From Desulfobacterales bacterium (lineage in GTDB: Bacteria; Desulfobacterota; Desulfobacteria; Desulfobacterales; SG8-13), in NCBI GenBank assembly GCA_051155755.1, contig DAXETY010000002.1, positions 26,860 through 90,859 of the forward strand: a DNA stretch of 64,000 nucleotides, in the 5' to 3' direction. A program made the position numbers and the translations under genes. Shown in pieces: positions 5,878 to 50,191 of the stretch (its first letter is position 1; every line of letters begins with the position of its first letter). The notes beneath the pieces are model-generated. The model worked only from the letters and a program-made list of their open reading frames with translations, was not told the origin of the DNA and did no database searches.

Positions 5878-7017
5878 TCAAGGGTTCAGTTCGGCGGTAA
5901 TGGCAAGATTGTCGCGATGAATGACTTCGTCAAAGGGTTTGTATCCCAAGCGATTTCGGATCTGGTTGGTTTTCAGCCCCATGATCTTCCTTATATCGGC
6001 GGCGCTGTAATTGACAAGTCCGATTCCCAATACTTCTCCGTCGCGTTGAAACTCCACCGGTGCACCCACCGAAAATTCCCCCGCGACGTCACTGACGCCA
6101 CTGGGCAACAGGCTCTTGCCCCGTTTCAAAACCGCTTCGGCGGCACCGCCGTCGATGATCAGAACGCCCTGGGGTTTGAGATTGAAGGCGATCCAGGATT
6201 TGCGGCTGGCCAGTTTTTCGGCCTTGGGCTCGAAAAAGGTTCCGTATTGCTTGCCGGCAAACAGCTTCAGCAGGATATCCGGACGGCCGCCGTTGGCAAT
6301 CACCATCGGAATGCCGGCCGCGGTCAATTTGCGGGCGGCCCGGATTTTGCTGAGCATACCCCCGCGGCCAAGCGCTCCGGGAATGTCGCTGGCATATTTT
6401 TCGATGCGCTTTTCAAAGCGGGTCACCAACGGTATCAGTCGGGCGTCTTTATGGGTCCGGGGGTCTTTGTCGTAGAGGCCGTCGATGTCGGTGAGATTGA
6501 CCAGCAGATCGGCATCCATCAGCAGGGTAATCATGGATGCCAGCGTGTCGTTGTCGCCAAACTGGATCTCTTCGACCATGACCGTGTCGTTTTCGTTGAT
6601 GATCGGAATGACCTGCCAGCTCAGAAGTGTGTTTACGGTGTTGCGGGCGTTGAGATAACGTTTGCGGTTGGCCAGGTCATCGCTGGTGAGCAGTATCTGA
6701 GCCACCTTTTTCTGCTGAGCGGCGAAAGCCTTTTCGTATTCGCGCATCAATCCGGTCTGACCCACGGCCGCAACCGCCTGGCGTTTTGGAACCTCATCCG
6801 GCCGACCGGGCAGCTCGAGCCGGCGGATTCCGGAAGCCATGGCGCCGGAAGACACCAGGATGACTTCCATCCCTCTGCGAATCAGGGTGCAGACCTGGCG
6901 GCTGATGGACCGAATCGCCTTCAGATTCAATCCGTTGGTTTCGGTCAGCACGTTGCTGCCGACCTTTACGACCAACCGCCGGGCGGTTTCAAAGCAATGT
7001 TTTCTCTCCGGACTCAT
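5878..7017 (-). CDS. proB: glutamate 5-kinase
   Basis: [10 protein letters not shown], the amino-acid kinase fold pattern and a C-terminal PUA-like region. The ATG at 7017 overlaps the obg 3' end. Confidence 0.9.
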
Positions 7018-20298: not shown

Positions 20299-20335
20299 AA
20301 TGACCATCAGTTCCATCGGAAAAGGAGGTTTTCCA

Positions 20336-33465: not shown

Positions 33466-33888
33466 ATGGCGAGCAGAGCCAAGGAGCAACGGCACTGCCG
33501 TAGATTCGAACACGAAACCCCGATTATCATTCAAACCCGGAACAATGGCTGCCACAACGGACGCATGTTCAACTTTTGCAAGGACGGAATGTACATCGAA
33601 ACGGACGTGGAGTGCTGCCCGGGCCAGGAGGTGGCCATCGTGGTCGAAGATCCGCCTTACGGCCGCGGCCCCTTTCTTCACCAGGCCCAAATTAGATGGT
33701 CCCGGGAACTGCCCGAAGCAGTTGAATTCTATCGATTTGGATGCGGCGCACAGTGGGATGTAACGATCGATTACTCCCTCAACCGCTCCAAGTTGCCCTT
33801 TCGGCGCCGCTCCGGACACGATCGACGTTCCGGCAAGGACCGCCGCTCGGGATTGAACTGCCGGCGAAACGACCCGTTCACCGACTAA
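33466..33888 (+). CDS. PilZ-like domain protein with a DRRSG-repeat tail
   Basis: GAAGGAG RBS 6 nt upstream. RHCRR (RxxxR) and NFCKDG in place of the (D/N)xSxxG motif. Paralog of 35258..35605. Confidence 0.55.
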   Translation: MASRAKEQRHCRRFEHETPIIIQTRNNGCHNGRMFNFCKDGMYIETDVECCPGQEVAIVVEDPPYGRGPFLHQAQIRWSRELPEAVEFYRFGCGAQWDVTIDYSLNRSKLPFRRRSGHDRRSGKDRRSGLNCRRNDPFTD

Positions 33889-33924
33889 AGCCGGACGCGA
33901 CCCATTTCCGGCCCCGAAAAATCC

Positions 33925-33953
33925 TTGACATGCCACGCAGTGGTATATATAAA
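33925..33953 (+). promoter_or_regulatory. sigma70-like promoter (TTGACA-17-TATAAA)
   Basis: TTGACA at 33925..33930 and a TATATATAAA tract at 33944..33953. No ORF lies downstream. Confidence 0.5.
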
Positions 33954-33959
33954 AAATAC

Positions 33960-34036
33960 GGTTAGACCATTGTGCCTAACTCAACCTCCTTTCATTGATG
34001 GACGGGCCGCTATACCCCGGCGGCCCGTCTTTTTTT
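33960..34036 (+). ncRNA. candidate small RNA 1 (about 77 nt) with an exposed ACCUCCUUU tract
   Basis: Bracketed by the promoter at 33925 and the terminator at 34001..34036. No plausible ORF. AACCTCCTTTC at 33983..33993. Confidence 0.4.
34001..34036 (+). terminator. rho-independent terminator
   Basis: Perfect 10-bp stem GACGGGCCGC/GCGGCCCGTC, 9-nt loop, then T7. Confidence 0.8.
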
Positions 34037-34150
34037 GGCTTCGGTGGATCTTCCGTGATCCGGGCCCTGCCGTTATACTGGAAAAATGGGAGACGCGGAA
34101 GCGTTGGCGGGGGAATCCAATCGGCAAACAAACCCTTGCCGGAGTGACGA

Positions 34151-34393
34151 TCAGGCGGAACTGGCGGGAGAATGGGGCACATCGGTGCGGTTTTTATACG
34201 AATCGTCCTCTCGGTACATTTTTTGGAAAAACCGCGCCGGCCGGAGTTTGCGAATCAGGTGTTTCGGTTTCCGTTTGGTGGAAGGACGGCGTTCGGTCCA
34301 GAGCCAGATTCTTTCAATCAGCAAAATGCCGACGACCACGGCCAGTACGGACGTCATCATCAACATTCCAAAAATTGCGGGATTTACGGTCAT
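34151..34393 (-). CDS. hypothetical small membrane protein (80 aa)
   Basis: One N-terminal TM helix (IFGMLMMTSVLAVVVGILLI) and a basic tail. The codon third positions look coding-like. Weak GGGGTGAA upstream of the ATG. Confidence 0.35.
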   Translation of the reverse strand: MTVNPAIFGMLMMTSVLAVVVGILLIERIWLWTERRPSTKRKPKHLIRKLRPARFFQKMYREDDSYKNRTDVPHSPASSA

Positions 34394-34600
34394 GGATATT
34401 CACCCCAATGAAAAAAATGATGGGTTTTTCCAGCCGGGCTCTGCCTCTCGCAACCGCGCGGTGCCACCGCGTACCGGCACGATCCTGGTAGAGCAAAGAC
34501 TGTGCCGGGGAAGCCTTTTCCAAAAATTATCAGCTTTAACAAATTGTTATCGTGTTGATTGACTTCAGTTGGCCGAGGATCCGCGCGGTATAATGGGAAA

Positions 34601-34698
34601 ATGGTTTCCGGATGTTGGGCAGTGTTTTTCCCATCCCACCCGCGGCAATTTCCAATCTCAGCAGATCGTGACGCCATCCGGGGGGTGGCATTTTTTTT
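34601..34698 (+). ncRNA. candidate small RNA 2 (about 100 nt)
   Basis: Perfect TATAAT at 34589..34594 but no properly spaced -35. Ends at the terminator 34673..34698. The only overlapping ORF reads through the terminator. Confidence 0.25.
34673..34698 (+). terminator. rho-independent terminator
   Basis: GCCATCC-GGGG-GGTGGC hairpin followed by A then T8. Confidence 0.7.
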
Positions 34699-34850
34699 CA
34701 CCGCATGGGGCAACCGGATTTGCGCACCCTGGCCGCCATCTCGGATGAATACCGGGTGCAAATCGTATTATTATGCAATGCGATACAAGTTCATTGAAAA
34801 CACAAAACGGAGCCGAATATGCAATCGAATCCGCACTTTACAAATAAGAG

Positions 34851-34878
34851 TTGACAAAGACCGCCAACTTGATATGAT
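34851..34878 (+). promoter_or_regulatory. sigma70-like promoter (TTGACA-16-TATGAT)
   Basis: TTGACA at 34851..34856 and TATGAT at 34873..34878. Confidence 0.5.
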
Positions 34879-34884
34879 ACTTTC

Positions 34885-35022
34885 AACTTTGGATATTCCC
34901 CGCCGGGGAGCATAGCTGGGGAGGGTTGGATTTGATCAGCAGCTTGCATTCCCTCCGAAATGAAAAATGCTAAAGCGCTTCTATCACCAGACCCTGTTGC
35001 GAGAGCAGCCGGGTTTTTTTTT
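34885..35022 (+). ncRNA. candidate small RNA 3 (about 140 nt), GGA-rich 5' half
   Basis: Downstream of the promoter at 34851. Four GGA motifs within 34893..34935. GGGAGGG/CCCTCC pairing. Ends in a weak stem plus T9 (35014..35022). Confidence 0.3.
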
Positions 35023-35257
35023 GCCGAAATCAGTCGATTTCGGTTTCGGCAACATGCGGAAGTCAATTACCCAGTGCTGGGAAATGCGGTTCCCAATCCG
35101 GGGTGCCGCGCGTTCTGAGTATCGACGGTAAACCCCCTGCCGGCGGGCCGTTCGCGGATCCGGTATGCAACCGCACGATGGTATGGTTCTTGCTCCCAGT
35201 CCCGCTACAACCGATGGACTTGCCTGTCGCTGTGATTGCATCCGGGAGGAGGGGGCA

Positions 35258-50065: not shown

Positions 50066-50191
50066 TGCCCGGAAGCCGGGGTTGGCTGAAAAACGATCCC
50101 CGAACGTACACCCACCGGTATCTTGCAGCGTCGCAGGGTCTGCGATTCGGGTGACCACATGAACAGCGATGAATCCAAAGGAGGTAGGCGT

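Follow-up and report, generated by a model that had tools for sequence, protein, structure and literature searches.

Does a segment that looks like a promoter closely followed by a terminator encode a functional RNA, and if so, of what kind? The question is raised by positions 33925-34036 on the plus strand of a 64,000-nucleotide stretch of contig DAXETY010000002.1 from a Desulfobacterales bacterium, which we refer to as the window. An earlier note on this DNA had proposed that the segment specifies an independent small RNA (sRNA) whose functional element is a CCUCCU tract, the core of the anti-Shine-Dalgarno (anti-SD) end of 16S rRNA. Ten homologous loci support that proposal, and we consider it highly probable that the element is a genuine, conserved and previously uncatalogued sRNA gene. 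Its functional type is a familiar one: judged from sequence, it is most likely a trans-acting anti-SD base-pairing sRNA, and it matches no Rfam family.

Ten distinct loci hold the element: five were reached through homologues of the neighboring gene for a PilZ-domain protein, three through synteny and two through the promoter pattern. PilZ homologues at 74-96% protein identity pointed to L002-L006 and L013, and at all of these loci the element lies directly downstream. Loci L140, L141 and L142 were picked through a neighboring FAD-dependent reductase gene (60-64% protein identity), blind to the RNA sequence; the element was found at the expected place in each, scoring 82-97 bits with covariance model R1. 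The same model gave 112 bits at the window site, 43-114 bits across the homologues and 43-46 bits for L023 and L052, the two loci that came from the promoter-pattern scan and that have the gene order phosphomannomutase gene, minus-strand open reading frame (ORF), sRNA, saccharopine dehydrogenase. A distant clade of 147-aa PilZ proteins (51-67% identity; L007-L012 and L015) was followed by a plain terminator or by nothing, and no sRNA was found downstream of its members.

Substitutions among the homologues preserve two helices. The 10-sequence alignments were made with covariance models; MAFFT alignments that included L023 and L052 misaligned the proposed seed. Standard pairs fill 96.7% of the pair cells, and eight of the 18 pairs are altered on both sides, a result that none of 500 shuffles matched. 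Sliding the partners by 1-3 columns, as a control, brought pairing down to 24-51%, and RNAalifold recovered both helices de novo from the ten sequences. Three of the six pairs of the 5' hairpin are altered on both sides (GUUAG/CUAAC, for example, becomes GUUCG/CGAAC in L005), its stem is wholly different in L023 and L052, and its loop is variable (CCAUUGUGCC, CCUCGCGCC or CGAUGGGCC). In the terminator, five of the 12 pairs are altered on both sides and 100% of the cells are paired across the ten sequences; its T-run is 7-9 long in nine of the ten homologues and in L141 a single C breaks it. Conservation is as strong in the promoter block as in the RNA; the interval between the PilZ stop codon and the -35 hexamer, by contrast, diverges. 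Though these sequences come from a narrow lineage, the comparative evidence points unambiguously to a conserved structured RNA.

Only one block of the RNA is invariant. The sequence C-A-ACCUCCUUUCAU is identical at all ten loci. Variation affects the 5' leader, the hairpin 1 loop and, at some loci, the entire 5' stem, yet C-A-ACCUCCUUUCAU is unchanged even in L023 and L052, whose 5' hairpin sequence is different. Conservation of the CCUCCU tract had been set beforehand as a test in the earlier note, and no locus among the ten keeps the hairpin and loses CCUCCU; L023 and L052 show the opposite. The tract was unpaired, in the minimum free energy (MFE) or centroid structure, in the window RNA and in five of the six other homologues folded. 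The exception is L141, where part of the tract pairs with the 5' leader, a result that depends on an arbitrary choice of 5' end. Because invariance is confined to this single-stranded stretch, which has a covarying helix on either side, we interpret the tract as a candidate base-pairing seed. The 3' tail of many bacterial 16S rRNAs reads ACCUCCUUUC, and the tract is identical to this usual tail over 10 nt. Three copies of ACCTCCTTT occur in the window against 0.35 expected; the two copies outside the element are the antisense of AAAGGAGGT ribosome-binding sites.

The anatomy of the element is collected in Table 1. TTGACA and TATAAA at a 17-nt spacing, an unpaired tract, and a perfect 10-bp GC-rich stem followed by U7 are all where the earlier note had placed them; its description was accurate as far as it went and overlooked the 5' hairpin. 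About seven variable bases separate TATAAA from this hairpin. Ten of the 12 terminator pairs are perfect Watson-Crick pairs (GACGGGCCGC/GCGGCCCGUC), and the terminator hairpin ranks as the strongest within 32-36 kb in a terminator scan. Folding of the predicted RNA gave two hairpins and left the tract unpaired, in the MFE as well as the centroid structure, at -28.3 to -28.5 kcal/mol (z = -3.6 to -4.0); none of 200 shuffles folded equally well. Two features expected of the sRNA class are thus apparent: a promoter-like block and a terminator bound a short non-coding unit at all ten loci (transcription being predicted), and sequence and predicted folds place an accessible seed between covarying helices.

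Table 1. Features of the sRNA element and its immediate neighbors in the window
Feature	Position	Strand	Remark
A-tract, UP-element-like	33917-33921	+	just 5' of the -35 hexamer
-35-like hexamer TTGACA	33925-33930	+	the same in 10/10 loci, among them the three picked by synteny only
Palindrome ATGCCAC-GCA-GTGGTAT in promoter spacer	33930-33946	+	candidate operator; kept in 10/10 loci
-10 region	33941-33953	+	TATAAA at 33948-33953 (17-nt spacer) or extended -10 TG-n-TATATA at 33941-33949 (13-nt spacer)
Predicted sRNA transcript, about 76-82 nt	33955-34036	+	conservation drops between the -10 region and hairpin 1
5' hairpin, GGUUAG (33960-33965)/CUAACU (33976-33981), 10-nt loop	33960-33981	+	
Single-stranded tract CAACCUCCUUUCAUUGAU, 18 nt	33982-33999	+	candidate seed; invariant core C-A-ACCUCCUUUCAU at 33982-33995
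Tract as CUCAACCUCCUUUCAUUG	33980-33997	+	read directly from the sequence
Intrinsic terminator, 12-pair GC hairpin (34000-34030), loop AUACCCC, then U7 (34030-34036)	34000-34036	+	
PilZ-domain gene, 140 aa, SD AAGGAG	33466-33888	+	Pfam PilZ E = 7.6e-4, just under the curated cutoff
Single-transmembrane protein gene, 80 aa, convergent with the sRNA	34151-34393	-	no Pfam match

The promoter is not the plain consensus promoter that the earlier note described. The hexamers and their 17-nt spacing are there, but the spacer is occupied by an operator-like palindrome. All ten loci have, in this order, an A-tract, TTGACAT, the palindrome and an A/T-rich -10 region, with the A-run preceding TTGACA in every homologue. 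The consensus of the palindrome is ATRCCAC-N3-GTGGYAT. It is perfect in L013 and L140 (ATACCAC-N3-GTGGTAT), changed symmetrically in L142 (ATGCCAC-GGT-GTGGCAT) and longer in L023 and L052, where it has an 11-3-11 layout (TGACATGCCAC-N3-GTGGTATGTCA). The simplest reading of this pattern is an operator for a dimeric regulator inside the promoter; a literature search for the palindrome motif found nothing relevant. At the 17-nt register the homologues have TATAAA, TACAAA, TATCAA or TATATA, and L023 and L052 have TCAGGA. A promoter scan skipped 33925-33953 solely because it required T at position 6 of the -10 hexamer, where TATAAA ends in A. The predicted transcription start site lies at 33955-33961, its exact position being uncertain because of the palindromic spacer and the second possible -10 register.

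Searches for known families and for other roles were negative. Rfam 15 at gathering thresholds gave no matches in the whole window, which includes no 16S or other rRNA gene by the same criterion, and a tRNA/tmRNA scan found none. With E values up to 10, positions 33700-34300 matched ncr1241, the L20 leader, ncS16 and SorX (E = 0.46-8.3), all of which align with the terminator alone. A coding role on either strand was rejected, as no conserved ORF was found on either strand of the element across the loci; the minus strand has an SD-like AAAGGAGGU followed by merely ATG-GTC-TAA, and the T-run lengths vary among loci. A minus-strand terminator was rejected because the hairpin is not followed by a T-run on that strand, and a leader or riboswitch because a plus-strand gene is missing for more than 1 kb downstream.

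It is the invariance and single-strandedness of the tract that lead us to propose a pairing mechanism. With moderate confidence we favor a trans-acting, probably transcription-factor-controlled anti-SD sRNA that would block a subset of ribosome-binding sites. A dimeric regulator would bind ATRCCAC-N3-GTGGYAT and control transcription from the RNA's own promoter; the RNA might also be produced as the tail of read-through transcripts of the PilZ gene. The seed, C-A-ACCUCCUUUCAU within 33982-33999, would pair with purine-rich initiation regions that have the form (G)AAAGGAGGU(UG), keeping the 30S subunit off a subset of mRNAs, with translational repression and probably secondary mRNA decay as the outcome. 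The C-rich terminator loop (ACCCC) may provide a second contact, and the RNA would belong to a regulon of anti-SD sRNAs that share the promoter motif in related bacteria. Transcription of the RNA, its start site, its pairing with ribosome-binding sites and its regulator are all features that we infer from sequence. U-tails of at least seven are reported for Hfq-binding sRNAs (PMC5558911). The tails of the homologues, at 7-9 in nine of ten with the C-interrupted tail of L141 as the remaining case, fit this rule, and Hfq binding is putative.

The earlier note had described GGAGG-type sites as common in the window. They are moderately common and not pervasive: a count of GGAGG followed after 3-10 nt by a start codon and an ORF of at least 60 aa gave 25 cases, several of which are shadow ORFs. 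The RNA is less likely to act on every GGAGG site than on a subset whose complementarity is extended, with pairing that would go beyond GGAGG (an example target sequence is CAAUGAAAGGAGGUUG). On the sense strand, AAAGGAGGU is found in the window only at 20321-20329 and 50177-50185, both of which are ribosome-binding sites. The former fronts a 193-aa lipoprotein gene (start 20336), whose site CCAUCGGAAAAGGAGGUU is predicted to pair bipartitely with the seed at -21.3 kcal/mol. The latter precedes the gene of a 324-aa protein (start 50192) which, from its sequence, we take to be a TAXI-family TRAP solute-binding protein and for which the predicted duplex has -19.3 kcal/mol. A second PilZ gene near the element (start 35258, SD GGGAGGAGGGGG) follows at -19.2 kcal/mol and is the best neighbor-gene match in two of three genomes.

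A number of observations weigh against this interpretation or narrow it. No target could be assigned from the 64 kb: in the window-wide duplex folding, initiation regions were not clearly separated from the coding-region background, and the initiation regions of neighboring genes in three genomes gave no consistent best target. Extended pairing with the ribosome-binding site of the adjacent PilZ gene is found in the window and is not conserved. Which of the two -10 registers is used is ambiguous, and neither gives a good hexamer in L023 and L052. The ten sequences represent one narrow lineage with few independent substitution events. The exact PilZ protein was found on one other contig alone, the 2.2-kb Logan contig L001 (from SRR3280906), which is identical to the window and holds the sole other copy of the locus. 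A scan of 185,579 species genomes with the seed CAACCTCCTTTCATYGATGG returned only three matches, in an archaeon, an actinomycete and a Bacteroidota metagenome-assembled genome; these lack promoter or terminator context and are treated as chance, and a breadth beyond the clade is thus unproven. Finally, the iterated covariance model R2 scored only 18-28 bits, which is weak, on other families driven by the same promoter motif.

Other explanations must be set against the anti-SD reading. The element might be mainly the 3' untranslated region (3' UTR) and terminator of the PilZ mRNA, its tract acting in cis by folding back on the PilZ SD or in an RNA released by processing. PilZ and the element are linked in eight of the ten loci (seen in L002-L006, L013 and L140). 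A terminator scan found no terminator between 33889 and 33999, and the PilZ mRNA probably ends at the sRNA terminator because the gene has none of its own. The PilZ ribosome-binding site CCAUCGAAGGAG can, moreover, pair with GAUGG...CUCCUUU at -13.7 kcal/mol. The CCAUC part of that site, however, is not kept in L005 or L013; the promoter block is conserved, unlike the interval that separates it from the PilZ stop codon; and in L023 the element and its full promoter occur without PilZ upstream, the neighboring gene there being on the other strand. We therefore think it improbable that the element is mainly a 3' UTR. A dual origin, from its own promoter and from PilZ read-through, is likely and is compatible with the anti-SD reading; the claim of an independent RNA is supported as to the promoter and needs amending as to the terminator, which is shared with the PilZ gene, a point that had been overlooked. 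Doubtful to about the same degree is a cis-antisense or type-I-antitoxin-like partnership with the convergent membrane-protein gene at 34151-34393 (-), whose read-through mRNA would be fully complementary to the sRNA. This single-transmembrane gene keeps its position, convergent with the sRNA, in L002, L005, L006 and L140 (80-102 aa), and there is no convincing minus-strand terminator between its stop codon and the sRNA. Yet L023 lacks it in the 2.4 kb that follow the sRNA, the 3' ends of the two genes are 110-220 nt apart, and 80-102 aa is long for a type I toxin. Antisense pairing, furthermore, needs no given sequence and leaves unexplained why a 14-nt anti-SD tract alone should be invariant.

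The resemblance to 16S rRNA also admits a decoy or sponge, which would titrate a factor recognizing the 16S tail or CU-rich RNA, or would sequester an RNA with a GGGGAGGG tract such as the one at 34851-35018. The 10-nt identity with the usual 16S 3' tail (a tail taken from textbook knowledge) speaks for it, as does the presence of GCUGGGGAGGGUU in this neighboring conserved RNA, whose synteny with the sRNA holds in L002, L005 and L023. On the other hand, a hairpin followed by a single-stranded seed and then a U-rich terminator is the standard architecture of a base-pairing sRNA, and we rate a decoy as unlikely. That the element is a chance promoter-like sequence before an ordinary terminator, with no functional RNA, is an explanation to which the region scan lends something, with 13 terminator-like sites against 6.6 expected and three promoter-like sites against 2.4 expected. 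The promoter, the covarying hairpins and the invariant tract are nonetheless kept across ten loci in at least two genomic contexts; this excludes chance for practical purposes, and we give it a very small probability indeed.

The palindromic promoter is not confined to this sRNA. A search of Joint Genome Institute (JGI) metagenomes with the motif TTGACATNCCACNNNGTGGTAT (TTGACAT-N-CCAC-N3-GTGGTAT) returned at least 120 contigs (L020-L139), and the counts that follow are for sites and units among the matches listed. At 111 distinct motif sites, flanking positions left unspecified in the search are also conserved: 50-60% A at -9 to -4, C directly before TTGACA, R at the variable half-site position, TATWAT right after GTGG (which creates an extended -10, TGnTATWAT, 13 nt from TTGACA) and a second TATTAT-like hexamer at an 18-nt spacing. 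A terminator ends within 140 nt of the motif start at 56 of the 121 sites (about 45%). In 49 of these 56 the distance from the motif start to the terminator stem is at least 60 nt; these 49 were analyzed as units and fall into at least 16 sRNA-like sequence families. An anti-SD-like pentamer (CCUCC, CUCCC, UCCUC, CUCCU or UCUCC) occurs in the 25 nt before the terminator in 39 of the 49 units, against 11.8 expected from shuffles, and in eight of 16 family representatives, against 3.4 expected. In the same 25 nt, SD-like pentamers are found in none of the 49. The terminator loop holds CCCC or CCUCC in 32 of the 49, with loops of the CAUAUCCCC type. Other motif sites drive DUF1059-like proteins of 64-69 aa, small secreted proteins and PilZ proteins.

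The motif-bearing units form a candidate regulon of one regulator, and the palindrome seems to be a marker of a considerable group of anti-SD-type sRNAs in Desulfobacterales. The families share a promoter and a design; their common descent is unproven. A larger claim can be made, which we regard as speculative and rather unlikely: that Desulfobacterales possess a large undescribed regulon in which a palindrome-binding regulator would switch on at least 16 families of short RNAs, mostly CCUCC-type copies of the 16S anti-SD, and so reprogram translation globally by competing for the strongest SD sites, in the manner of the streptococcal csRNAs discussed below and independently evolved.

A few individual units deserve mention. 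A variant of the family at L032 432-503 (-) has its promoter just upstream, with an altered half-site (TTGACATGTCAC-AAT-GTGGTAT); a hairpin GUUAGG...CCUAAC is directly followed by CUAACCUCCUUUCAAUUG and a different terminator. L058 and L101 resemble it in layout (...CCUGACCUCCUUCAG...), and the three units may be distant homologues in lower-GC relatives. Two further units show that a comparable design is found behind other promoters. On contig L098, an sRNA-like unit at 6560-6642 (+) has no palindrome and carries two anti-SD tracts, GAACCUCCUUCAAUCUCCUCG, before its terminator; it lies about 60 nt downstream of a palindrome-driven unit. The window itself holds a second anti-SD-type sRNA candidate at 22607-22507 (-), which begins with a canonical sigma-54 promoter, TGGCAC-N5-TTGC (22607-22593). 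About 70 nt with GUAUUCCUCCUUUCAGG are followed by a hairpin (GGCUGACCGC/GCGGUCAGCC) and U5AUU. This unit has the 10-mer CCUCCUUUCA (22551-22542) in common with the sRNA at 33955-34036 and gives weak matches to models R1 and R2 (21-22 bits); a BLAST search for it in the retrieved loci found no match.

How does the sRNA compare with systems already described? The cia-dependent small RNAs (csRNAs) of streptococci have two stem-loops with an unpaired SD-complementary region between them, and many sequence-diverse csRNAs have been recognized by the promoter motif of one regulator together with a nearby terminator (PMC3091779). They are the closest system in layout and mode of action, and the related units described here were likewise found by a promoter motif and a terminator. 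The csRNAs belong to Firmicutes, and their promoters carry a direct-repeat CiaR box; the Desulfobacterales promoter has instead the palindrome ATRCCAC-N3-GTGGYAT. The csRNAs also differ in having an anti-AUG (CAU) 5' of the anti-SD. The CAU in the present RNA sits 3' of CCUCC and would therefore pair upstream of the SD, not at the start codon. Rfam detected no sequence homology between the two, and membership of the csRNA family is not supported.

In the Rhizobiales, AbcR1 and AbcR2 have anti-SD modules that lie single-stranded between hairpins, and they act mostly on mRNAs for periplasmic binding proteins of transporters (PMC4152367). The single-stranded anti-SD is a point of likeness to AbcR1, and the putative TAXI-TRAP gene, with one of the window's two perfect AAAGGAGGU sites before it, is another. 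AbcR1, however, has UCCC motifs, two modules and three hairpins, whereas the present RNA has one 12-nt CCUCCUUUCAU block and two hairpins, and the two are not homologous. The C-rich unpaired motifs of RsaE/RoxS and of 6C RNA pair with G-rich ribosome-binding sites. RsaE/RoxS in Firmicutes and 6C RNA in Actinobacteria are conserved sRNAs (PMC6158497, PMC5419742, PMC6486639). A C-rich element is likewise present here, in the terminator loop ACCCC, but the seeds of RsaE/RoxS and 6C are C-runs in hairpin loops, in contrast to the linear, single-stranded copy of the 16S tail considered here, and the Rfam families of both gave no match at E values up to 10. DapZ and MicL of enterobacteria are sRNAs embedded in 3' UTRs that have their own promoters and use the terminator of the upstream gene. 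The present sRNA resembles them in having its own promoter and a terminator in common with an upstream protein-coding gene; it differs in that the promoter lies 3' of the stop codon and not within the coding sequence, and in that the unit in L023 has no upstream gene.

The literature searched and Rfam yielded no base-pairing sRNAs described for Desulfobacterales or sulfate reducers. Desulfobacterales are important in the marine sulfur and carbon cycles, and the locus provides this mostly uncultured group with a clearly delimited sRNA that covariation supports and whose seed is obvious. The promoter signature retrieves dozens more candidate sRNAs from metagenomes and is thus a practical route to a post-transcriptional regulon, and the linkage to PilZ, a receptor of cyclic di-GMP, hints at a connection between second-messenger signaling and translational control.

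Several observations concern the neighborhood of the sRNA. The PilZ protein has C-terminal repeats of the type RRRSGHDRRSGKDRRSG (window 33790-33870), and these basic repeats, of the DRRxG type, recur in an unrelated 112-aa ORF beside the sRNA in L023 (3658-3996, -) and, in L114, in a 63-aa protein whose gene has the palindromic promoter. Three sRNA-like units share the 1.3-kb intergenic region 33889-35257: the element at 33925-34036, one at 34559-34697 and one at 34851-35018. The last of these (+), the syntenic RNA already mentioned, consists of TTGACA-16-TATGAT and a terminator at 34996, which would delimit an RNA of about 130 nt, and lies upstream of the second PilZ gene. It is 82-90% conserved across four lineages (L002, about 1490-1680; L005, 7508-7775; L023, 6138-6275), gave no match in Rfam, and contains CCCCGCCGGGGAGC, GCUGGGGAGGGUU and CAUUCCCUCC, so that SD/anti-SD pairing within the RNA is possible. 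In L005 (6349-7544), L023 (4881-5993) and L140 (3195-4265), the sRNA and the 34851-type RNA are separated by a saccharopine-dehydrogenase gene. This gene is missing in the window and in L002, where the unit at 34559-34697 (+) is found instead; conserved in the closest relative, L002, alone, that unit has TTGACT-17-TATAAT, a length of about 95 nt, a C-rich stretch UUUUUCCCAUCCCACCC and the terminator GCCAUCCGGGGGGUGGC followed by U8.

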